A stretch of 64,000 bases of DNA from Bacteroidales bacterium. Lineage in GTDB: Bacteria > Bacteroidota > Bacteroidia > Bacteroidales > UBA932. The stretch spans positions 6,949-70,948 of the forward strand of contig JAEETP010000002.1 of the NCBI GenBank assembly GCA_016290415.1, read 5' to 3'. Of the stretch, positions 3,010-29,962 are shown piece by piece. The notes beneath the pieces are model-generated. The model worked only from the letters and a program-made list of their open reading frames with translations, ran no database searches and was not told the origin of the DNA. How positions within the stretch are numbered: position 1 is the stretch's first letter; every line of letters starts with the position of its first letter. The position numbers and the translations under genes were made by a program.

Positions 3010-4800
3010 TTATTTGATATAATCTGCCAGCCAGGCGCGTTCGGCGTCTGTGAGGTGGCTTTGCAGTGCATCATAGACACGCTTGTTATAGGCTTCCAGC
3101 CAGGCACGCTCTGCATCAGTGAGCAGGCTGAAATCCACCGCACGGCGGTCTATCGGCACCAGGGTAAGCGTCTCGAAACGATAGAAAGTGTTGTAGTCGC
3201 TCTTGGCGAAGGGAGACACCAATACCACGTTTTCTGTGCGGATGCCGTACTGCCCGTCTACATACACAGCCGGCTCGTCTGACATAATCATTCCTTCCTG
3301 CAGCGCGATGGGGCTGTATTCCATCCTGATCTGCGGGGATTCGTGCACGCACAGCCACTGCCCTATTCCGTGGGAAGTGCCGTGGAAGTACATCTTGCCG
3401 GTGCGGTACATAGGGCCGCGGGCAAGGATGTCCAGCTGGCAGCCGCGGGTGCCGGCCGGGAAAATAGCCTCGGCAAGGGCTATCATACCCTTCAAAACCA
3501 GCGTAAAGTCCTCTTTCTGAGCCGCCGTGGGCTCTTTTTCGCCCAGGAAGACGGTGCGGGTGGTGTCGGTGGTGCCGTAGGGATAGTGACTGCCGAGGTC
3601 CATCAGCAAAAAGCCGCCGCCTGCCACTCTGGCGCTGGAGGCCTCGTCGGTCACACTGTAGTGTGCGCTGGCTGCGTTGGCGTTCCAGGCCACTATCGGC
3701 TCAAAGCTCTCGCCCAGATAGTGGGCGCTGCCGCTCTTTATCTCAAGCAGCTTTTGGGTGATATTGTATTCGTTAAGGGAGCCGCTGCCATAATTGTCAT
3801 AAATGTATTTGAGCAGCCTGACCCAGCAGACACCGTCCTGCAAAAAGGCCTGCCGGAAGCCCTGCGCCTGAACCGGATTCTTGCAGGCGCGCAGCATAGC
3901 CACAGTCCCGCCCACCGTGGGGTCGGGCATCACGGCTTTGCCGCGGGAAAAGATTTTGTATTTGTTTATGGAGCAGCAGTTGTTGCTCACAATGCGTACC
4001 GCCTCTGCCGGGACGGCCTCCAGGGCGGCGTCTATCTCGCCGTAAGAGAGCACCTCAACCCCTTGGGAAGCCAGATAATCAGAAGCCTCCCCGGTAAGAC
4101 ACTCTTTGCGGCAGAACAGCTTTATGCCCTTGTTGTCCAGCAGACAATAAGAGAGCGTCACGGCGTTGTATTCTATGTCGCCGCCACGGATGTTCAGCAG
4201 CCACATAATCTCGTCGCAGGCACTCAAAAACAGGCAGAAAGGACCTTCTATGCCCAGATTTGAGACAACGTCCCTATACTTGTCGGAAACGCTGCGTCCT
4301 GCATATTCCTCTTTGTGCAGCAATATGGGGCTGTCGCCCAGCGAAGGACGGCCCGGCCAGAGGCTGTCAAACGGGTCGGAAAAGGTCTCCAGTGGCATCG
4401 GCGCCAACTCTTTGCAGAAGGCAAAGTAGTCGTCGTAGCTGAAAAGGTCGCCGTCTACACCCACCTTGTACTGCTCCGGAGCTATGCCGGAAGCCTTGCG
4501 GCAGGATTCAATCCACTGCGGGATGGAGGGCGTGCCGGGCATCTTGATCTTCATAAGCTCTATGCCCCTGCCCTTTATCTGGCGCTCCGCCTGCAGGAAA
4601 TATCTGGAATCGGTCCAGAGGGCCGCTTCTGTGAGAGTCACCACCAGGGTACCGGCGCTGCCGTCAAAGCCGCTGAGATATTCCCTTACCTTGAACCTTG
4701 CGGGCACATATTCGTCAAAGTGACAATCATTACTGGGAATGATTGTCACTTGAAAGCCCCTGGATGCCATCCAGGCGCGCAAAGAGGTCATCGGCTCCAT
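3010..4800 (-). CDS. pepP: Xaa-Pro aminopeptidase, M24B family
   Basis: Creatinase/prolidase-like N-terminal domains plus an M24 core (HGTSHGIG, SDEPAVY, GIRTEN). The start was moved to the ATG at 4798-4800, which overlaps the nagB stop by 1 nt. The longer track ORF would run antisense-free into nagB with an R/H-rich junk extension. Confidence 0.8.
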   Translation of the reverse strand: MEPMTSLRAWMASRGFQVTIIPSNDCHFDEYVPARFKVREYLSGFDGSAGTLVVTLTEAALWTDSRYFLQAERQIKGRGIELMKIKMPGTPSIPQWIESCRKASGIAPEQYKVGVDGDLFSYDDYFAFCKELAPMPLETFSDPFDSLWPGRPSLGDSPILLHKEEYAGRSVSDKYRDVVSNLGIEGPFCLFLSACDEIMWLLNIRGGDIEYNAVTLSYCLLDNKGIKLFCRKECLTGEASDYLASQGVEVLSYGEIDAALEAVPAEAVRIVSNNCCSINKYKIFSRGKAVMPDPTVGGTVAMLRACKNPVQAQGFRQAFLQDGVCWVRLLKYIYDNYGSGSLNEYNITQKLLEIKSGSAHYLGESFEPIVAWNANAASAHYSVTDEASSARVAGGGFLLMDLGSHYPYGTTDTTRTVFLGEKEPTAAQKEDFTLVLKGMIALAEAIFPAGTRGCQLDILARGPMYRTGKMYFHGTSHGIGQWLCVHESPQIRMEYSPIALQEGMIMSDEPAVYVDGQYGIRTENVVLVSPFAKSDYNTFYRFETLTLVPIDRRAVDFSLLTDAERAWLEAYNKRVYDALQSHLTDAERAWLADYIK

Positions 4801-20857: not shown

Positions 20858-21457
20858 TTAGATGTCGCGGCGGACTGGCTCAAAGAGTCGTCTGTAAGAA
20901 TCGGCTTTCCGGCTCAGTGGAAGTGGATATGCACGGGATGTGGAAGGCATACGCCAAAAGCGGATGGCGCGTTCCCCGGAACCATTATCAAAGCTGACAT
21001 CTACATAGCCTCCGACCGGAGGGATATCGCAAATCAATTGTTGCGCGGCCAGGAGCGATGCTTTCTGGCCGGTGGTCACAACTGACGTGCAGGTCGGAAT
21101 CCGTCTAAGCAACTCCTTCAGGTCGGTTGGAGTCACCACCTCCAGAAAGGCGTCGGAGGCATTGTCTTTAAGACGTCGCACCTCGCAGGCGGTGTCGTAG
21201 AAAGCGAGTCCCAGCCGGGCGCAGAACGTCCGAATGGCTTCTTCATCAAACCGCTTTTCTTTCAGATTGCAGAAATGGTCTTTGTCCGCAAAATGAATCA
21301 GCCCCATTATCCGCCAGAAGTCATTTATCCAGTTGGGATAGTAAAATGGCATGTTCCAGCGATGTTCCGGCGGCGGGAAACTGCCCAGGAACAGCATTCG
21401 CGCACCGGCAGGCAAAAACGGCTCGAAGGGATGTTTTTCTACGATACTCATCGGCAA
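20858..21457 (-). CDS. uracil-DNA glycosylase superfamily protein, family-6-like (DNA-deoxyinosine glycosylase type)
   Basis: 199 aa. MLFLGSFPP motif near the N-terminus and MPSTSRAY near the C-terminus, as in UDG-fold family 6 enzymes. Confidence 0.65.
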   Translation of the reverse strand: MPMSIVEKHPFEPFLPAGARMLFLGSFPPPEHRWNMPFYYPNWINDFWRIMGLIHFADKDHFCNLKEKRFDEEAIRTFCARLGLAFYDTACEVRRLKDNASDAFLEVVTPTDLKELLRRIPTCTSVVTTGQKASLLAAQQLICDIPPVGGYVDVSFDNGSGERAIRFWRMPSTSRAYPLPLSRKADSYRRLFEPVRRDI

Positions 21458-22261
21458 TTACTCGTGATAATCACTCTCTTTCCATTCAAACTTAACAGTC
21501 TCTGGCACGAGATATCGGCCTATCTTATAGTCGATGTCGGCTTTGTGCGCCTGACTGAGCTGATAGCGGCGCGGTATCCGGAACATCTTCCCGTCTTTGA
21601 TGAAACGGGCACCTGTCTGATGGAAGCGAAAGGCGATATCCTTTGCCACGCACTGCTCTCGAAGGGAGAGTATCCAGTTGTAGTCGCATGGCCGGGCGTC
21701 AACCCCGGACTCTCCTCCTACCGATACCTCGTCTATTGTCTCATCGAGGTATGGAGTCAGATCAAGGGCCGTGAGAAGCGGCGAAGCGATTATGCTTTTA
21801 TGCTTTATCGGCAGGGAACGGAATATGGGCAGGCGATAATCCGCCATCTCCTGATTTTCCACCGTGCATCCCACGATGACATTGTCGTAACCGTCGCCCC
21901 AGTTTTCGGGCACACAATCCAGAAAGCGGTCTATGCGCTTGGTAAAAAAGAAGAACCAGAGGTCGCTGCGAAGTTTCATCATCTGCCAGCATTCCGGCCG
22001 CCAAGCGTCAGCATCCTTCAGCAGGAAATCAGAGGTGAAACAGGTGAATACGATTTTACCACTCTCTATTTTCCACGACTTGTCGCGCTTGCGCCTGACG
22101 GGCAGATAGAAGTTGCCGGTCTTGCGGCACTCGCTGCTCGAGATCTCGCTGCCGTACATCTCGTCCTGACGGTAGACATAGCAATACTTGCAACCGGGGC
22201 TTATCTTGGTGCAACCGTGCCACGGATTCCAGTCTGCATATACTTCCCAGTGCTCTGACAT
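21458..22261 (-). CDS. DUF5131 / phage Gp37-Gp68 family protein
   Basis: N-terminal WNPWHGCTKISPGCKYCY three-Cys motif characteristic of the Gp37/Gp68 family. Its stop abuts the start of the UDG-like gene. Confidence 0.75.
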   Translation of the reverse strand: MSEHWEVYADWNPWHGCTKISPGCKYCYVYRQDEMYGSEISSSECRKTGNFYLPVRRKRDKSWKIESGKIVFTCFTSDFLLKDADAWRPECWQMMKLRSDLWFFFFTKRIDRFLDCVPENWGDGYDNVIVGCTVENQEMADYRLPIFRSLPIKHKSIIASPLLTALDLTPYLDETIDEVSVGGESGVDARPCDYNWILSLREQCVAKDIAFRFHQTGARFIKDGKMFRIPRRYQLSQAHKADIDYKIGRYLVPETVKFEWKESDYHE

Positions 22262-22329
22262 ATTTGAGAAACAAATATAACCCCTCGCTGCTATTTATGC
22301 AAAGGTTTGCGGGATTCTCCACGGTGGAG

Positions 22330-22337
22330 TATATTTG
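22330..22337 (+). promoter_or_regulatory. candidate Bacteroidetes -7 promoter box (TATATTTG)
   Basis: Matches the TAnnTTTG consensus, 21 nt upstream of the ATG at 22359. Confidence 0.4.
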
Positions 22338-22358
22338 TGAAGGAAACAATTTAACGAT

Positions 22359-22628
22359 ATGGAAATGAAATTTTGTCAGAGCTGCGGAATGCCGCTCACA
22401 GAAGAGATGCTGGGCACAAACGCCGACGGCAGCAAGAACGAAGATTATTGCATCTACTGCTACAAGGACGGCGCCTTCACCAAAGACTGCACGATGGACG
22501 AAATGATTGAATTCTGCGCGCAGTTTGTGGACGAGGTAAACAAGAATATGCCCAAACCGATGACCAAGGAAGAATACAAGCAGATGATGCAGCAGTTCTT
22601 CCCCACGTTGAAGCGATGGAAATCATGA
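22359..22628 (+). CDS. zinc-ribbon domain protein
   Basis: 89 aa. FCQSCGMPL...DYCIYCY gives two CxxC pairs. Confidence 0.6.
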   Translation: MEMKFCQSCGMPLTEEMLGTNADGSKNEDYCIYCYKDGAFTKDCTMDEMIEFCAQFVDEVNKNMPKPMTKEEYKQMMQQFFPTLKRWKS

Positions 22629-24223: not shown

Positions 24224-25495
24224 TTAGTCTATGATGTCGAAGCCTGTCCACTTGCGCAGAACCTCGGGCACCTTGATGCCCTCTGCGGTCTGATTGTTTT
24301 CGAGCAGCGCGGCCACTATTCTGGGAAGAGCCAGTGAGCTGCCATTCAAGGTGTGAGCCAGCTGAATCTTGCCGTTCTCGTCTTTATAGCGGAGTTTCAG
24401 GCGGTTTGCCTGATAGGACTCGAAGTTGCTCACCGAACTGACCTCCAGCCAGCGCTTCTGAGCGGCGCTGAACACCTCGAAGTCATAGGTTATGGCACTT
24501 GTAAAACTCATATCGCCGCCACACAGGCGCACGATGCGGAACGGAAGGCCAAGGCTGGCCACCAGTTTCTCTACGTGGGCCACCATACCGTCCAGGGCCT
24601 CATAGGACTTCTCGGGCAGGCTCAGCTGCACGATTTCTACCTTGTCGAACTGATGCAGACGGTTCAGGCCGCGGACATCCTTGCCATAGGAGCCGGCCTC
24701 GCGGCGGAAGCAGGGAGTGTAGGCGGTCATCTTCACGGGGAAGTCTTTCTGACCAAGAATCACATCGCGGTAGATGTTGGTCACGGGCACCTCTGCGGTG
24801 GGCACCAGATAGAAATTGTCCACGGTGGCGTGGTACATCTGGCCCTCCTTGTCGGGGAGCTGGCCGGTACCGAAACCGGAGGCCTCATTTACCATTACGG
24901 GCGGCTCCACCTCCAGATAGCCGGCGGCGCTGTTGAACTCCAGGAAATAGTTGATGAGTGCGCGCTGCAGCTTGGCACCCTTGCCCTTATAAACGGGGAA
25001 TCCGGCGCCGGTGAGCTTCACGCCCAGATCGAAGTCTATGATGTCATATTTGGCGGCAAGCTCCCAGTGCGGCAGGGCATCCTCTCCCAGCTCGGGAATC
25101 TGACCCTCCATCTTCACGATTACGTTGTCGTCGGCATTCTTGCCTTCGGGCACCTGGGCGCAAGGGAGGTTGGGCAGCAGCACCAGCAGGTCGTTCTGCT
25201 GTTTCTCTGCCTGGGCCATCTTCTCTTCCAGAGACTTGGACTGCTCTTTGAGGGCTGCCACAGAGGCCTTTGCTGCCTCGGCCGCCTCGCGGTTGCCGGC
25301 TTTCATCAGGGCACCGATTTCAGCTGCCTTGGCCTTCTGCTGCTGCAGCAGGGCGTCCATCTCGCTCTGGGCGGCGCGGCGCTGCTGGTCGCACTCCAGA
25401 ATCTTGGCAACAATCTCTTTGGCGTCAAAATTCTTGACAGCCAGCCGTTCTACAACAAAATCGGGGTTTTCCCTGAGAAGTTTGAGTGTAAGCAT
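24224..25495 (-). CDS. serS: serine--tRNA ligase
   Basis: 423 aa. N-terminal coiled-coil arm and class II motifs (TPCFRREAGS, GSSLALPR). Confidence 0.9.
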   Translation of the reverse strand: MLTLKLLRENPDFVVERLAVKNFDAKEIVAKILECDQQRRAAQSEMDALLQQQKAKAAEIGALMKAGNREAAEAAKASVAALKEQSKSLEEKMAQAEKQQNDLLVLLPNLPCAQVPEGKNADDNVIVKMEGQIPELGEDALPHWELAAKYDIIDFDLGVKLTGAGFPVYKGKGAKLQRALINYFLEFNSAAGYLEVEPPVMVNEASGFGTGQLPDKEGQMYHATVDNFYLVPTAEVPVTNIYRDVILGQKDFPVKMTAYTPCFRREAGSYGKDVRGLNRLHQFDKVEIVQLSLPEKSYEALDGMVAHVEKLVASLGLPFRIVRLCGGDMSFTSAITYDFEVFSAAQKRWLEVSSVSNFESYQANRLKLRYKDENGKIQLAHTLNGSSLALPRIVAALLENNQTAEGIKVPEVLRKWTGFDIID

Positions 25496-25529: not shown

Positions 25530-25537
25530 CAAATATA
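25530..25537 (-). promoter_or_regulatory. candidate -7 promoter box for serS (TATATTTG on minus strand)
   Basis: The reverse complement of caaatata matches TAnnTTTG, about 35 nt upstream of the serS ATG. Confidence 0.4.
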
Positions 25538-25597
25538 GCAAATTATCCGTTTAGGCGACGATGTTTTATGAAACGACAACTACACGGTGCTGATGGC

Positions 25598-25850
25598 CGC
25601 TCGGGGCAGATGCCTCCGATTACCAAGTGTCTCGGGCAAAAATCTGCCCGCCGACACTTGTAATCTCCGGACAATATCTGCCCCAGCGCTCCCTCCTCCC
25701 CGGTCCCGCCAAAGCGCCTACGCGTTTAATAATGAGATAGCAGCCCCCGGCGAAATCGCCACCGGCAACCTTCCTAAAGTCCTCGGCGCCTCCACCGCCG
25801 CCAGGACGGCTCGCGTATACGAATGAACCCGGCGCTTTGGCAGGACGAGA
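25598..25850 (-). repeat. structured repeat, copy A (full length, about 255 nt)
   Basis: Colinear with the reverse complement of 28261-28516. Shared blocks are gcagatgcctccg, cgggcaaaaatctgccc and accttcctaaagtcctc. The internal stems covary between copies. The strand is inferred from wobble compatibility. Confidence 0.7.
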
Positions 25851-25871
25851 CAAACATCGCCCGCTTTTTCA

Positions 25872-25879
25872 TATCTTTG
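25872..25879 (+). promoter_or_regulatory. candidate -7 promoter box (TATCTTTG) for the ADP-ribosylglycohydrolase gene
   Basis: TAnnTTTG match 22 nt upstream of the ATG at 25902. Confidence 0.45.
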
Positions 25880-25901
25880 CATTAGACACGCCACTGCTAA
25901 T

Positions 25902-27107
25902 ATGGATAGAATAAACGATACCACTTTGGACCGCACCCTCGGATGTATGATCGGCGGTGCCGTAGGCGATGCGCTCGGATATGCTGTCGAGTTTAGTTCT
26001 TGGCGTGAGATTCAGGGTCAGTATGGATCCAACGGCATAAGAGCGTTTCAGTTGGATCGTCGTGGACTTGCGCAGATTTCTGATGATACCCAGATGGCGT
26101 TGTTCACTGCAAATGGGATCCTGTTTGCAATGACAAGAGGCTATACTTATGGCCTTATGGCGCGCATCGATCATTATTGTGAAAATACTTATAGAGATTG
26201 GCTTCACACTCAAGATTGGACCTGTAGGAAAGAGAAGGATTACGGTATTTCCTGGCTGATGGATGTGCCAGAGTTGTATTCACGTCGCGCACCAGGCAAC
26301 ACCTGCTTGAATGCATTACGTGCTATGGATAATGGGAAACCGCTGGAGAATGACAGCTGTGGTTGCGGGGGCGTTATGAGAACTGCGCCCATAGCGCTGT
26401 TTTCGTACATCCATAACTATCTTTCTGATTTCGAAGACAGTCTTCTCGCCTGTGATGATTGTGCTGCCGGTGCGGCGAAGATTACCCATAAGCATCCGCT
26501 CGGTTTTATGCCGTCAGCAGTGCTTAATCATATCCTTATGCGTATTATGGATGGTGCTTGTGAAGCACCTGACGGATTGGTCAGCGTTGTGAGTGAGAGC
26601 CTGTCGGCACTGCCCAATATCAAATCTGAAGATAATTCTGGAAGGACATACGGGATACTCTTCCCAAAACACGTCAAGCAGTTGCAGGACATCGTGGAGC
26701 AAGCCATTAGTCTTGCTGGTACCGACTCGCCAGATCCTGTTGCGATTGAGTCTATCGGCGGAGGTTGGACTGGCCACGAGGCTCTTGCTATCGCCATATA
26801 TAGCGCAGTCAAGCATAGTGACTCGTTTGAGGATGCCATCATAAGCGCTGTCAATCACTCAGGTGACAGTGATTCCACCGGTGCGGTTTGCGGCAACATT
26901 ATGGGTTGCCTTCTGGGGCGGAAGTCAATTCCTCAGAAGTTTATCGAGCATCTTGAGTTAAGGGAGGTCATTGAAGAGATTTCCCACGACCTTTGGACCG
27001 GGTGCATTATTGACGACCATAATCACTATGATAGTGCCGAGCAACGCAAATGGTTCCTAAAGTATGAGGCTCATAGATGGAAAGAGCCTGAGCCCTCAAA
27101 GAATTAA
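25902..27107 (+). CDS. ADP-ribosylglycohydrolase family protein
   Basis: 401 aa. GGAVGDALGYAVEF, SDDTQMALF and HSGDSDSTGAVCGNIMG are the metal-binding motifs of the ARH/DraG fold. Confidence 0.85.
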   Translation: MDRINDTTLDRTLGCMIGGAVGDALGYAVEFSSWREIQGQYGSNGIRAFQLDRRGLAQISDDTQMALFTANGILFAMTRGYTYGLMARIDHYCENTYRDWLHTQDWTCRKEKDYGISWLMDVPELYSRRAPGNTCLNALRAMDNGKPLENDSCGCGGVMRTAPIALFSYIHNYLSDFEDSLLACDDCAAGAAKITHKHPLGFMPSAVLNHILMRIMDGACEAPDGLVSVVSESLSALPNIKSEDNSGRTYGILFPKHVKQLQDIVEQAISLAGTDSPDPVAIESIGGGWTGHEALAIAIYSAVKHSDSFEDAIISAVNHSGDSDSTGAVCGNIMGCLLGRKSIPQKFIEHLELREVIEEISHDLWTGCIIDDHNHYDSAEQRKWFLKYEAHRWKEPEPSKN

Positions 27108-27113
27108 TCAGTT

Positions 27114-27425
27114 ATGGAAAACGAAGACCTGATAAAATACTGCCGCTACTACAAAGGCGAAGAGCAAAATCCGTTTGATAAAGTTGACCAGGACAAGGCG
27201 ATGTTGTGGTTCTACGAGATGTGCTTTGTAAAGCACGGCCAACGATACGACTATAACGACCTTCTCTCGGAGTATGCTGTAGTTGGTCTTACGTCATTTG
27301 CGAAGGACGATGGTGTACCCATAGAATTGAAAGCGTTACTGTTCAACAGGTATTCTAAGACTGCTTATTCAATGATGGATGCCGCTGAGCCTTTCAAAGA
27401 GTTTTATCTGAAGTATTACGGATAA
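27114..27425 (+). CDS. hypothetical small protein (103 aa)
   Basis: Lies 6 nt after the ARH gene with the same AT-richer composition. I recognise no family. Confidence 0.55.
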   Translation: MENEDLIKYCRYYKGEEQNPFDKVDQDKAMLWFYEMCFVKHGQRYDYNDLLSEYAVVGLTSFAKDDGVPIELKALLFNRYSKTAYSMMDAAEPFKEFYLKYYG

Positions 27426-28206
27426 TCGACTTCACCCATTCTAGCACTTTATCGTTGGCCTCAAAAACGAACTCCTGCCCTCTCCCAGCAGAATAAAACC
27501 CATCTTCTTTCCACGCTGTACGATTGTAAGAGATAGGGATCTCACGGAAGAAGGGCGGCAGATTCCACACCCTTCGCTTGCATCCAGACTTGGTTAGGAC
27601 CCTATTCGGTGAATAACACAGACAAGCATAACCAGGAAGGTTCGTATCAAGAGAAAGTATCTCCGTCGGAAGAAACAATGCATTCTTTCCATTCGTCCAA
27701 CGGAAATCAGCTGCGTGTGGATGTATCAACAGCTCTGAAGGAATATCTTTCTTATCTCTAATGATAGAGCCTATTTGCAGATACCCATAAACAATATGGA
27801 GGTCAGGCGCATTTGGCACATATCTAAGTCTGCCATTATGGAATTCTGTTTGACGATACCAGCCGAAGAACAGGAACAAATCTCCAACACCCACTCCTTG
27901 CTTATCCAAATGCGAAAGAGAAGCCCCTACTTGGCCAAATGCGGGTTTCCATTTTACCCGGTGAATGACGCCCTTTCTAATATCCGGATCCAGATGGCAC
28001 GTAGATGAAGCCAGTAATTGCGTCCTTGGCGAAAGCTCACGAATAATCTCATTATATGACATCCCTCCGTATGATAAATCTCCATACTGAACGCTATCCT
28101 TCGATGATGGAATCGGCAAGGACAATAACGTCCCGTCAGGGAGAATAGGACTAGGCATTCCCCCGGCAGCACTGTCAAAACCTTTACGGCTGAATATCAC
28201 TTTCAT
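27394..28206 (-). CDS. hypothetical protein, possibly Nmad3-type (nucleotide-modification-associated) family
   Basis: 270 aa. The N-terminus MKVIFSRKGFDSAAGGMPSPILPDGTLLSLPIP matches a widespread conserved-hypothetical pattern that I recall being named Nmad3. This is unverified. Confidence 0.55.
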   Translation of the reverse strand: MKVIFSRKGFDSAAGGMPSPILPDGTLLSLPIPSSKDSVQYGDLSYGGMSYNEIIRELSPRTQLLASSTCHLDPDIRKGVIHRVKWKPAFGQVGASLSHLDKQGVGVGDLFLFFGWYRQTEFHNGRLRYVPNAPDLHIVYGYLQIGSIIRDKKDIPSELLIHPHAADFRWTNGKNALFLPTEILSLDTNLPGYACLCYSPNRVLTKSGCKRRVWNLPPFFREIPISYNRTAWKEDGFYSAGRGQEFVFEANDKVLEWVKSIIRNTSDKTL

Positions 28207-28228
28207 CGAAACAGGGTATCAATATTTA

Positions 28229-28236
28229 CAAAGGTA
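28229..28236 (-). promoter_or_regulatory. candidate -7 promoter box (TACCTTTG on minus strand)
   Basis: TAnnTTTG match 22 nt upstream of the ATG at 28204-28206. Confidence 0.4.
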
Positions 28237-28260
28237 ACAAAAACCCGCTTCAAGACACCA

Positions 28261-28516
28261 TCGTCCCACCAAACCGCCTCGCCCCCACTTCGACACGGGC
28301 CGTCCTATGGGCCGCGGAGGCGCAGAGGACTTTAGGAAGGTCGCCGGGGGTGATGTCGCCAAGGGGTGCTATCTACTTTTAAACGGGTATGGCGGTTTGG
28401 TGGGACAGGGGTGGAGAGAGCGACGGGGCAGATAGAGTCCGGAGCTTGAATTCTTTCAGGGGCAGATTTTTGCCCGGAAAGAATTGCAAGCGGAGGCATC
28501 TGCCACGAGCGGATGT
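28261..28516 (+). repeat. structured repeat, copy B (full length, inverted relative to copy A)
   Basis: See copy A. Perfect long-range stem 28265-28278 / 28391-28404. Hairpin 28444-28457 / 28477-28491. Confidence 0.7.
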
Positions 28517-28586
28517 CGTTATTTTGGAGTCACAAGAAATGTGGTTATATTTGCCTTGTCTAAGGATAAAGCAAGTGCGCTACATA

Positions 28587-28625
28587 AAACAGAATACCAG
28601 CCCTAACTGGTTTTCTGTTTTTTTA
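28587..28625 (+). terminator. intrinsic terminator-like hairpin plus T-run downstream of repeat copy B
   Basis: aaacagaataccag / ctggttttctgttt forms a 14-bp stem with one mismatch and loop ccctaa, followed by a T-run. No plus-strand CDS lies upstream. Confidence 0.55.
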
Positions 28626-28668: not shown

Positions 28669-29157
28669 ATGATAGATTCTTCTGAATTATTTGTTCTGTA
28701 CAGACAGTATGAAAGTGGCGGCAAGATTTGGTTAATGTTGGGGCTTTCGAGCACTGATTCTGATTACGATGACATTTTGAAAATAGCAGAGTGCTTGGCT
28801 ATAGAGGGGCACGAGGTCAAGATTCTTCGTGCAGTTCACTATAAAGATCCGCTCTATAACCTGATATTTGGGGAATTGGAGGATACTCGCTACTATCGAA
28901 AATGTCCGGACCTATGGGTAGACGGCTATTATGTCGAATATGAATCATACTCCACACCTCTTCCAAGGAACGCTTTCCGTAATATGCTGCATAACGGACT
29001 GGCGCAATCTGACTGTATCATCATACGCCATTGCAACTTAACAGATGGCTATATGATACGCACACTACGCGGTCACATTCATAATGGGGTCGCTGTGTCT
29101 AAGGTATGGATATTCAACGGAGAGAATCTTCGACTGTTATATAAAACTGAAGGCTGA
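28669..29157 (+). CDS. hypothetical protein (162 aa)
   Basis: AT-richer ORF with no overlapping alternative. KCPDLWVDGYYVEYES is faintly reminiscent of PD-(D/E)xK nuclease cores but lacks the canonical Lys. No family assigned. Confidence 0.5.
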   Translation: MIDSSELFVLYRQYESGGKIWLMLGLSSTDSDYDDILKIAECLAIEGHEVKILRAVHYKDPLYNLIFGELEDTRYYRKCPDLWVDGYYVEYESYSTPLPRNAFRNMLHNGLAQSDCIIIRHCNLTDGYMIRTLRGHIHNGVAVSKVWIFNGENLRLLYKTEG

Positions 29158-29255
29158 CGAGAAACTCGCCAGCCCAGTATGCAGCGAATCCGTAGAATCG
29201 CTACTGCAAATGTACGACTATTATCGGATTATCAAAACTTTTTTTAACCGCCACC

Positions 29256-29309
29256 GGCAGACTATTGCCCGGGAAGAATTGCAAGCGGAGGCATCTGCCC
29301 CAAGCGGAT
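29256..29309 (+). repeat. structured repeat, copy C (truncated, 3'-terminal 54 nt, direct with copy B)
   Basis: ggcagactattgcccgggaagaattgcaagcggaggcatctgccccaagcggat matches 28461-28514 position for position, with about six differences by my hand count. Confidence 0.65.
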
Positions 29310-29314
29310 TATAA

Positions 29315-29347
29315 CAAAAAAAATGGACGGCAATAATTGCCATCCAT
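29315..29347 (-). terminator. intrinsic terminator of rplU-rpmA
   Basis: Hairpin atggacggcaa / ttgccatccat. The single C:A mismatch becomes G:U on the minus strand. The A8 run at 29315-22 gives a U-run on the minus strand, 25 nt after the rpmA stop. Confidence 0.65.
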
Positions 29348-29372: not shown

Positions 29373-29642
29373 TTACGCCTCAGCGCCCTTGGCGGGAACT
29401 ATAGAGACATAAGACTTGTTTTCACGGGTCTTCTTGAATGCCACTGTACCATCGACCAACGCATAAAGAGTATGGTCCCTGCCCATTCCGACGTTTTCGC
29501 CGGGATTGTGTACAGTGCCTCTCTGACGCACCAGGATGTTGCCAGCCTTGGCAACCTGACCGCCAAACAATTTAACGCCCAAGCGTTTGCTTTCCGATTC
29601 ACGGCCGTTCTTGGAACTACCGACACCTTTTTTGTGAGCCAT
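29373..29642 (-). CDS. rpmA: 50S ribosomal protein L27
   Basis: [24 protein letters not shown] is the canonical L27 N-terminus. Confidence 0.95.
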
Positions 29643-29653
29643 AATCTTTAGTT

Positions 29654-29962
29654 TTAAGCGATTTCGTCAATTTGGATTTTGGTAAGATACTGACGGTGAC
29701 CGTTTTTCTTAGTCATACCTTTGCGGCGGATCTTGTGGAAAACGATAACCTTGTCAGCTTTGCAATGCTCCATAACGGTAGCTTTGACAGTAGCACCGGC
29801 TACATAGGGTGAGCCGACCTGGACAGAACCTTCATTGTCAACGAGAAGCACCTTGTCAAAATTTACGGAAGAATCCACGTCTGCTGCCAGACGGTTCACG
29901 AAAATCTTGCTGCCCTTCTCAACCTTGAACTGCTGTCCTGCAATATCAACGATTGCGTACAT
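29654..29962 (-). CDS. rplU: 50S ribosomal protein L21
   Basis: [17 protein letters not shown]...[11 protein letters not shown] is the canonical L21 pattern. Confidence 0.95.

Follow-up and report, generated by a model that had tools for sequence, protein, structure and literature searches.

How defence islands are assembled outside the integron-bearing Proteobacteria is an open question. In gut Bacteroidales, the rAID-1 loci, which their authors describe as integron-like, are arrays whose genes are separated by repetitive sequences; they are defined by the adjacent XerD-family recombinase, followed by at least two co-oriented short genes of less than 41% G+C that encode type VI secretion system immunity proteins (10.1101/471110; PMC12247911). 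Here we analysed a stretch of 64,000 nucleotides (nt) from a Bacteroidales bacterium (GCA_016290415.1, contig JAEETP010000002.1, positions 6,949 to 70,948 of the forward strand), denoted the window. Within the window, an element of ~260 nt occurs as two complete copies in opposite orientation (A and B) and one degenerate copy (C), all in a 3.8-kb island between serS and rpmA. The island resembles rAID-1 in the bacterial order that carries it, in its horizontally acquired protective genes split by repetitive intergenic sequences, and in its G+C contrast. Unlike rAID-1, with which it was compared by description, it shows no adjacent recombinase, its cargo of 43-50% G+C lies in mixed gene orientation, and the cargo is of anti-phage, toxin-antitoxin or phage-like type. 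The element is real, previously undescribed, lineage-restricted and structured. The reading that we put first, with a probability of about 0.4, is that it is a cis-acting site of a mobile cassette system, working as folded single-stranded DNA, with an architecture like that of attC but outside the attC family.

The original prediction, made from the letters of the window, described a diverged inverted repeat whose hairpins are kept by compensatory changes, and the follow-up bore this out. BLAST of copy A against the window aligned it to B with 79% identity over 223 nt (E=5e-46), the full-length alignment of the two gave 74% identity over 259 nt, which is far beyond chance, and a repeat search resolved the inverted repeat into one segment of 187 nt (74%) and another of 53 nt (81%). 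The repeat reaches ~35 nt beyond the long-range stem P1 of the 5' domain, taking in the -7 boxes of the divergent genes. The proposed hairpins, the long-range stems and the outer stem of A are all present in the sequence (Table 1). Between A and B, nine base pairs have both partners replaced yet remain paired, four single substitutions are tolerated as G.U and one change breaks a pair. Copy C can be followed weakly back to 29202 by nhmmer (match 29202-29317); its part from 29256 to 29309, comprising the apical hairpin, the 3' arm and the tail (29287-29307), is 91% identical to the last 54 nt of B. BLAST, nhmmer and a covariance model detected no further copies within the 64-kb window, and a single island in these 64 kb carries copies.

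The further copies on which the prediction depended were found elsewhere. One exact-pattern scan each of genome and metagenome collections yielded ~16 further distinct complete copies and several fragments, after removal of duplicates, in metagenome-assembled genomes (MAGs) and metagenomes of rumen Bacteroidales. The MAGs came from goat, sheep and water buffalo rumen and the other copies from rumen metagenomes; their loci are designated here by L and a number. On 13 short-type copies RNAalifold predicted 54 pairs, 17 of them with compensatory changes, and paired cells made up 96.2% across these copies. Column shuffles gave 8.8 +/- 1.6 double-change pairs (0 of 500 reached 17) and slid partners gave 2-6. 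Both strands fold much better than shuffles (z = -6 to -7), as expected of any palindrome, hence the strand call rests on the count of G.U against A.C. The 13-copy alignment holds ~63 G.U cells versus ~2 unpaired A.C cells, indicating that the G-rich strand alone adopts the structure; this is the plus strand at B and C and the minus strand at A, the same assignment that had been proposed for A and B. With R1, the covariance model of the 3' domain, copies reached 105-121 bits when read in sense and 21-31 bits in antisense. Stop codons interrupt B in each of the six frames, and single-base indels distinguish the copies; therefore the element is non-coding, and a protein-coding reading was rejected. 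Together with the covariation that persists in the 13 copies, this supports the earlier view that selection acts on a fold and not on a protein.

The earlier statement that the element belongs to no named RNA family also held. Rfam 15 gave no match in the window at gathering score, and chance-level matches only at E<=1 to 10 when 5 kb and single copies were searched. A weak match to Parabacteroides-1 (E=1.3-4; 14.9 bits, where the gathering score is 93.4) lies outside the element, on the opposite strand of a module found upstream of some copies (see below), and was taken as chance. Model R1 detected no diverged structural relatives of the 3' domain across 261 kb of collected sequence, three pattern scans of viral contigs returned chance 16-mers only, BLAST found no match to the element among plasmids (PLSDB) and phages, and a literature search with the conserved strings of the element, and for defence-island repeats in Bacteroidales, gave nothing relevant. 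Copy number looks low, with 14 metagenome loci and eight matches in a protein database searched with translations of the element; these eight, possibly miscalled genes, are on contigs of at most 2 kb without context. We also observed that contigs begin or end in or beside a copy (L021, L033 and L039 at the start, L038 and L054 at the end). Contig ends at copies are the usual sign of a multi-copy repeat, so that the number per genome is probably underestimated.

The element is composed of a 5' multi-branch domain of ~150 nt and a 3' hairpin domain of ~100 nt. The 5' domain is closed by P1, a stem of 14-16 bp in which GTCCnGCCAAAGCGCC is paired with GGCGCTTTGGCnGGAC. Its interior is of three subfamily types, which have little in common beyond a GTCC/GGAC hairpin and the motif UUAGGAAGG. 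In the 3' domain, an outer stem of GGGGCAGAT paired with ATCTGCCCC, with two covarying positions, is followed inward by an internal loop and then by an inner stem of 13-14 bp. The inner stem has three sequence variants, each fully compensated, and the bulged base that had been noted at an equivalent place in A and B stands at the same position of the 3' arm in all of them. Loops, internal loop and bulge are better conserved than the inner stem, and the hairpin tip GGGCAGATTTTTGCCC is invariant; it includes GATTTTTG, which is close to the Bacteroidetes-type -7 box, TAnnTTTG in the Bacteroides promoter consensus. The best-conserved stretch is the tail, the last 21 nt (GGAGGCATCTGCnCnGAGCGG; consensus GGAGGCATCTGC(A/C)C(C/A)(G/A)AGCGG), which constitutes one half of the outer stem, and likeness among all copies ends exactly after GAGCGG. 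The 5' edge, TGnCYY-GTCC, is fairly sharp and the left flank only loosely conserved. The copies are mosaics of reassorted modules, with three types each of 5' domain, arm and tail. In 'long-type' copies, a module of 100-140 nt, rich in G+C and with several internal hairpins, always lies immediately 5' of the tail. It sits exactly between GAAAG and the tail, in L039 directly after the 5' domain, and takes the place of the 3' arm of the hairpin (in L039, of the entire hairpin). The module may represent a substitute 3' domain or an insertion nested within the element.

Comparison with related strains demonstrated that the island is an insertion. Among contigs encoding an identical RpmA protein we found both empty and filled loci. 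Five conspecific strains (L047, L050-L053) have rpmA, 110 nt and serS, without element or tail and with flanks 93-98% identical, and BLAST homology to L047, L050 and L051 breaks off at 29314 and restarts at 25537. The island is flanked by the core genes serS (24224-25495, minus strand) and rpmA-rplU (29373-29962, minus strand). Its order is A, an ADP-ribosylglycohydrolase gene and a 103-amino-acid gene (plus), an Nmad3 gene (minus), B, a 162-amino-acid gene (plus) and C; the G+C content of 43-50% inside compares with 57-61% outside. On the rpmA side, the tail of C lies 4-6 nt from the junction of the island with the rpmA terminator. The idea that the element is an RNA gene serving as integrase target and rebuilt by the island, as the repetition of the 3' end of B by C might be read, is ruled out by the empty site, which lacks the element. 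At L059 ~3720-3790, corresponding to window 28443-28507, we observed a 65-nt deletion between short GAGC repeats, by which B has lost its hairpin and the greater part of the tail; either the palindrome is unstable or this is an assembly artefact.

The tail is the sharp boundary of the element and the place where imported DNA meets resident DNA. Tail-only copies are present in L032, L036, L038 and L040, and two fragments (window C and L032 3634-3690) retain the 3' half alone. L043 and L044, with flanks 98.9% identical, have the tail and the sequence beyond it in common and diverge at the 5' edge of the tail, where one has a short hairpin arm and the other a 140-nt module; L036 and L032, 99.9% identical, differ likewise at this edge. 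Apart from window A and the far copy of L039, copies within a locus are co-oriented, including four tails in L036, two in L027, B and C in the window, and two complete copies with a 5' fragment in L034.

Table 1. Positions of the element copies, their parts and the associated genes and signals. Coordinates are those of the window unless a locus is given.
Feature	Position	Strand	Remarks
Copy A, complete element	25597-25852	minus	inverted relative to B and C; 3' tail points outward to serS
A, 3' domain	25595-25695	minus	109 bits with model R1
A, 5' domain, multi-branch, closed by P1	25703-25846	minus	
A, long-range stem P1	25705-25718/25831-25844		16 nt, 94%, 112 nt between arms (repeat search)
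A, inner hairpin arms	25618-25631/25653-25665		
A, outer stem	25603-25611/25676-25684		
A, 21-nt tail GGAGGCATCTGCCCCGAGCGG	25597-25617	minus	likeness to every other copy stops here
Copy B, complete element	28258-28512	plus	
B, 3' domain	28414-28514	plus	112.8 bits with model R1; other strand 25 bits
B, 5' domain closed by P1	28263-28406	plus	
B, P1	28265-28278/28391-28404		extendable to 28256-28278/28391-28413; 23 nt, 87%, 112 nt between arms
B, inner hairpin arms	28444-28457/28477-28491		
B, 21-nt tail GGAGGCATCTGCCACGAGCGG	28492-28512	plus	
Copy C, degenerate 3' domain	29202-29309	plus	well kept only in 3' half
Inserted block (island)	25538-29313		copies A, B and C and four cargo genes
-7 box TATCTTTG (TAnnTTTG type) of divergent ADP-ribosylglycohydrolase operon	25872-25879	plus	29 nt from P1 of A, within the extended repeat
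-7 box TACCTTTG of divergent Nmad3 gene	28229-28236	minus	30 nt from P1 of B
Cargo: ADP-ribosylglycohydrolase, 401 amino acids	25902-27107	plus	Pfam PF03747, E=1e-60
Cargo: 103-amino-acid protein (p103), phrog_19606	27114-27425	plus	no Pfam match; conserved partner of the glycohydrolase
Cargo: Nmad3-domain protein, 270 amino acids	27394-28206	minus	Pfam PF18754, E=8e-65
Cargo: 162-amino-acid protein, between B and C	28669-29157	plus	resembles C-terminal part of phrog_19194
-7 box TATATTTG, downstream of B	28546-28553	plus	probable promoter of the 162-amino-acid gene
Hairpin and T run	28586-28621	plus	after the TATATTTG box; outside the repeat family, not kept after other copies
Long-type module	L020 3275-3368		
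Long-type module	L027 6320-6408, 7340-7435		
Long-type module	L044 6935-7064		
Long-type module	L039 1-105	minus	

The original prediction had asked whether copies elsewhere flank variable cargo; at every locus examined the neighbours are imported-type genes, namely defence, toxin-antitoxin or phage-like cargo. They include the type I methylase HsdM, HicAB, ORF6N (three loci), GmrSD, Mrr, Dam, a DndB-like protein, Schlafen-type proteins, a set of Dcm, McrBC-like, LlaJI, Vsr and giant helicase genes, YhcG, WYL and helix-turn-helix regulators, LPD3 (two loci), a KAP NTPase, and a QueC-like protein with TatD. Some families recur immediately after a copy and in its orientation: LPD3 at two loci (40% amino acid identity), ORF6N at three and HicAB at two, and the glycohydrolase-p103 pair of the window adjoins a copy again in L038. 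Copies often border on a core gene, such as serS, rpmA, secA, a rhamnose transporter or a dehydrogenase; in L034 and L039 it is again the rpmA locus, here of a relative (84% identity) and filled with other cargo. L020 and L027 are from one MAG. Homologues of p103 with 83-84% amino acid identity are found in other bacteria in McrBC/NERD islands without the element, indicating that the element is lineage-restricted and not tied to one cassette. Neither promoter nor terminator stands at a fixed distance from P1 or tail across copies. At least five copies (window B, L020, L034a, L039 and L041) have only a divergently transcribed gene upstream, so that read-through cannot supply a transcript there.

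We put the DNA-site reading first because it explains both the selected, strand-specific fold and the behaviour at joints, whereas a free-standing RNA gene explains the fold only. The element would be the non-coding part that is conserved among the small mobile gene blocks (cassettes and islands) of one rumen Bacteroidales group, acting in cis at the DNA level as a folded G-rich single strand. A recombinase of tyrosine/Xer or HUH type, presumed to be encoded elsewhere in the genome, would recognise the folded 3' hairpin and cut or exchange strands at the tail; genes together with a copy of the element would thereby be gained, lost or swapped, and homologous recombination between copies would then reshuffle the arrays. 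That this amounts to a second, independent invention of folded-strand cassette recombination, a hitherto unrecognised system with integron-like function building the defence islands of rumen Bacteroidales, we consider unlikely. In that case the internal 'guide' GGGGCAGAT would pair with the site's own 21-nt terminal joint and the recombinase would be encoded elsewhere. The original prediction had left three natures side by side, a structured RNA, an attC-like site or a non-autonomous transposable element. The choice has narrowed: joints, co-oriented arrays and the bulge lend support to the attC-like site, and neither a miniature inverted-repeat transposable element (MITE) with terminal inverted repeats nor, at ~12 independent loci, a link to palindrome-associated transposable elements (PATEs), TnpB or IscB held.

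A number of observations weigh against the DNA-site reading. The inversion of copy A is unexpected of a simple integron-like array, and in L039 the copy at the far end of the island is inverted like A and carries the alternative 3' module. On the serS side of the window island, the tail of A stops 59 nt (25538-25596) short of the junction. The empty site has neither tail nor element, and the first insertion therefore used no resident site. The extra block of L034 relative to L039 is not bounded by tails. Adjacency to a recombinase, TnpB or IscB gene, which the original prediction had raised, did not materialise: no recombinase, transposase or reverse transcriptase was found by Pfam among the neighbours tested beside any of ~12 independent loci. 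Long-type copies with a broken inner stem exist, three of them in one genome. The helices of the 5' domain are short and rich in G.U and suit RNA better than DNA. In addition, some tail-only copies can be explained by slippage deletion, or by recent duplication and homologous recombination. L044 lost its 5' domain by deletion between CTGCC repeats, and the array variants V1-V3 of L032, L036 and L040 are interconvertible by recombination between direct repeats; hence part of the pattern is ordinary repeat instability.

The same observations bear on the other explanations. That the element is a new structured RNA of ~260 nt, copied from the G-rich strand and carried passively with the cassettes, in whose transcripts it would often form the 3' untranslated region or lie between genes, is a possibility that we take seriously and rate as somewhat unlikely; such an RNA might insulate or protect imported transcription units or bind a lineage-specific protein, as proposed for orphan ornate RNAs of mobile DNA. 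Its multi-branched fold, the covariation, the many conserved G.U pairs and the conservation of loops, internal loop and bulge over the inner stem would all suit an RNA, as would the lack of a mobility enzyme found nearby. Four copies (L019, L027a, L033 and L043) follow a gene of their own orientation and either overlap its stop codon or begin no more than 30 nt from it. In the L032/L038 subfamily, P1 is preceded at ~30 nt by a TATGTTTG-like box, and GATGTTTG adjoins P1 in copy A. However, promoter and terminator have no fixed position and read-through is impossible at several copies. The best-conserved part is the 21-nt tail, which is also present without any fold, and the 3' half of C is kept at 91% while its pairing partner has decayed. 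The tail coincides with island junctions and breakpoints, some copies persist although a domain is deleted or a stem broken, and Rfam holds no relative. The proposed transcript of ~370 nt spanning 28261-28625 is likewise not borne out, as the promoter-like TATATTTG box separates the element from the hairpin at 28586-28621 and other copies lack a fixed promoter or terminator. A self-mobile, non-autonomous element of MITE or PATE type, served by a transposase in trans and collecting in defence islands where insertions are tolerated, appears improbable. It would account for the discreteness of the unit, whose 5' edge (TGnCYY-GTCC) is fairly sharp and whose 3' edge is sharp, for several loci per genome (L020 and L027), for the frequent breaks of assemblies at copies (L021, L033, L038 and L039) and for a strand-specific hairpin as at IS200/IS605 ends. 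The ends of the 260-nt unit, though, are not terminal inverted repeats, with 5' TGnCYYGTCC and 3' CCGAGCGG unrelated, and no target duplication flanks any copy, on which grounds a MITE with terminal inverted repeats was rejected. Moreover, no pair of loci differs by the element alone, the copies of one genome are old (A/B 74-79%) and not a recent burst, copy number looks low, and TnpA, TnpB and IscB genes occur at no locus.

A passive repeat without a function of its own, providing portable homology for cassette swapping and with palindromes kept by gene conversion, would agree with the module mosaics and with the derivation of V1-V3 through direct-repeat recombination, but gene conversion should leave no strand bias, yet half-compensated pairs are G.U against A.C at ~63 to 2; structure is also retained between copies diverged to 74%, and bulge position and loop sequences are conserved. 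We regard this explanation as very improbable. Least credible is that the element is a relic of a conjugative leading region, serving for transcription or priming on single-stranded DNA (in the manner of Frpo, ssi or a single-strand origin); RNA polymerase would then recognise it in single-stranded form only. The size of ~260 nt and the strand-specific fold would fit, several copies lie amid establishment-type small genes (LPD3, ORF6N, orphan Dam, HicAB), and GATTTTTG in the invariant tip resembles the Bacteroidetes -7 box. Against these stand the location of the islands, only 1-10 kb between housekeeping genes, the sense of the folded strand, which is that of the co-oriented downstream genes and so not their template, and the ordinary -7 boxes already present between the tail and those genes. 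An Frpo-type promoter in particular was rejected, as no transfer genes were found, A and B lie on opposite strands and PLSDB plasmids contain no relatives.

Other identities were tried and rejected. For a tRNA or tmRNA integration site, ARAGORN finds neither gene in the window, and the empty site lacks the element. A transposon that would end in the tails as its inverted repeats and be flanked by an ATTAT duplication of 5 bp is speculative: the tails of A and C are indeed inverted, but 59 nt lie between the tail of A and the junction, and a supposed degenerate outer tail at ~25546-25566 was not detected at up to five mismatches. A retron msr-msd or the RNA of a defence-associated reverse transcriptase (DRT) was dismissed, since no RVT domain lies beside any copy and P1 closes the 5' domain only, not the whole element. 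A template and variable repeat pair of a diversity-generating retroelement was discarded because all 12 substitution types are represented between A and B and no reverse transcriptase was found; a group II intron reading was rejected as well. As for an inverton, the 112-nt segment inside P1 has the same orientation in 16 of 16 complete copies and lacks a TAnnTTTG box, and strand-biased G.U is unexpected of double-stranded sites. An IS200/IS605 PATE or an omega RNA was excluded on the grounds that tnpA, tnpB and iscB are missing at ~12 loci, Rfam HEARO and IS605-orfB give no match, and no conserved target tetranucleotide was established.

The cargo of the window island shows further organisation. 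The 3' ends of the 103-amino-acid gene (plus) and the Nmad3 gene (minus) overlap by 32 nt (27394-27425), indicating that two units, each headed by a copy of the element and a divergent promoter, meet tail to tail. The glycohydrolase and p103 form a conserved two-gene module in either gene order (window 25902-27425, L038 1891-3714, L068 1033-2553), with 57-61% amino acid identity between the window and L038. The p103 family counts more than 150 homologues and has no Pfam domain; the pair may be toxin-antitoxin-like or a defence or anti-defence pair. The 162-amino-acid protein aligns with the C-terminal third of the 438-position phage family phrog_19194 (E=4e-23), like a stand-alone domain, and has no match in Pfam, NCBIfam, PADLOC or PDB. 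Searches of the cargo proteins in PADLOC, NCBIfam and PDB revealed no known defence system. No recombinase or transposase was found in the parts of the window tested or in the gene lists for 14.5-39.6 kb. Between B and the 162-amino-acid gene, a strong hairpin with a T run lies ~35 nt after the TATATTTG box and 45 nt short of the start codon; this segment, 28546-28625, may give a very short transcript or an attenuator-like leader. A second strain-variable spot is located at ~21440-22615 of the window, where DUF5131 and Zn_ribbon_2 genes are missing in L047 and L050 and L051 have other genes instead (methyltransferase-like, acetyltransferase), without element or tail.

Outside the window, a module of ~100 nt is present upstream of three copies (L032 4205-4330 and 6235-6360; L038 3790-3910), on the strand opposite to the element. 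It consists of a TACCTTTG -7 box facing away from the element, two hairpins with compensatory changes among the copies and an intrinsic terminator, and is a candidate small RNA gene. At L070 4630-5910, a group II intron-type reverse transcriptase (RVT_1 and GIIM) lies beside fragmented ADP-ribosylglycohydrolase genes and a p103 homologue, without a copy of the element.

Whichever its nature, the element explains a strain-level difference in gene content, the 3.8-kb block between serS and rpmA, and its 21-nt tail and covariance model provide a searchable mark at joints of defence, toxin-antitoxin and phage-like genes in uncultured rumen bacteria. Should it serve recombination, it would point to a new pair of recombinase and site on folded DNA, and the mobile defence cassettes of Bacteroidales could be catalogued with its help; if it is an RNA instead, it would be a new class of ornate RNA tied to defence islands.

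Several known systems share part of this description. Like REP/BIME, ERIC and the pneumococcal BOX and RUP repeats, the element is intergenic, non-coding, often placed after stop codons, mosaic, hairpin-forming and lineage-restricted. Those repeats are simple palindromes of 20-150 nt in tens to hundreds of copies genome-wide, whereas the element is 260 nt long, multi-branched, apparently low in copy number, confined to imported blocks and provided with a 21-nt terminal motif. IS200/IS605 ends, PATEs and the omega RNAs of TnpB and IscB likewise have a strand-specific hairpin at a sharp end and internal sequence that pairs with terminal sequence, and omega RNAs are scaffold-like, of 150-300 nt, and end exactly at a boundary; both ends of IS200/IS605 are on one strand, in contrast to the inverted copies at the ends of the island. 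With HEARO, ROOL and GOLLD, the element has in common an ornate covarying fold, no fixed protein partner, several nearby copies and a mobile-DNA context. ROOL also comes from rumen samples. The element differs from these RNAs in giving no sequence or structure match (Rfam 15), in its smaller size, in lacking promoter and terminator signals and in the persistence of fragments and of the tail alone.

The closest functional analogues, besides rAID-1, are attC sites, their integrase-less clusters (CALINs) and the homogeneous repeats of chromosomal integrons, such as those of Vibrio cholerae. From integron arrays and rAID-1 alike the element is set apart by its size, domain structure and cargo and by the lack of a recombinase found beside it. 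The attC boxes (RYYYAAC and GTTRRRY, in a single hairpin of 57-141 nt) are absent, with no GTTRRRY at or after the tail in any copy and a base formed by GGGGCAGAT/ATCTGCCCC followed by GAGCGG, and neither intI nor another tyrosine recombinase was found among the neighbours tested or in the gene lists of L046-L063. Unlike attC, the element has an extra multi-branch domain of 150 nt, its tip is invariant and its inner stem variable, the opposite of attC, and its cassettes have their own promoters and may hold several genes in either orientation; one copy of the element is inverted. Other features are shared with attC. The 3' domain of ~100 nt is a hairpin of the size of a recombination site that folds on one strand only; it has a conserved outer stem, an unpaired centre and an inner stem with compensatory changes, and one bulged base is fixed in three arm variants, as is typical of attC. 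As in CALINs, the arrays have no integrase nearby, and as at attC sites, the element lies between cassettes, in arrays that are co-oriented but for window A and the far copy of L039, with cargo of defence, toxin-antitoxin and unknown genes and with the junction at the 3' end of the site.

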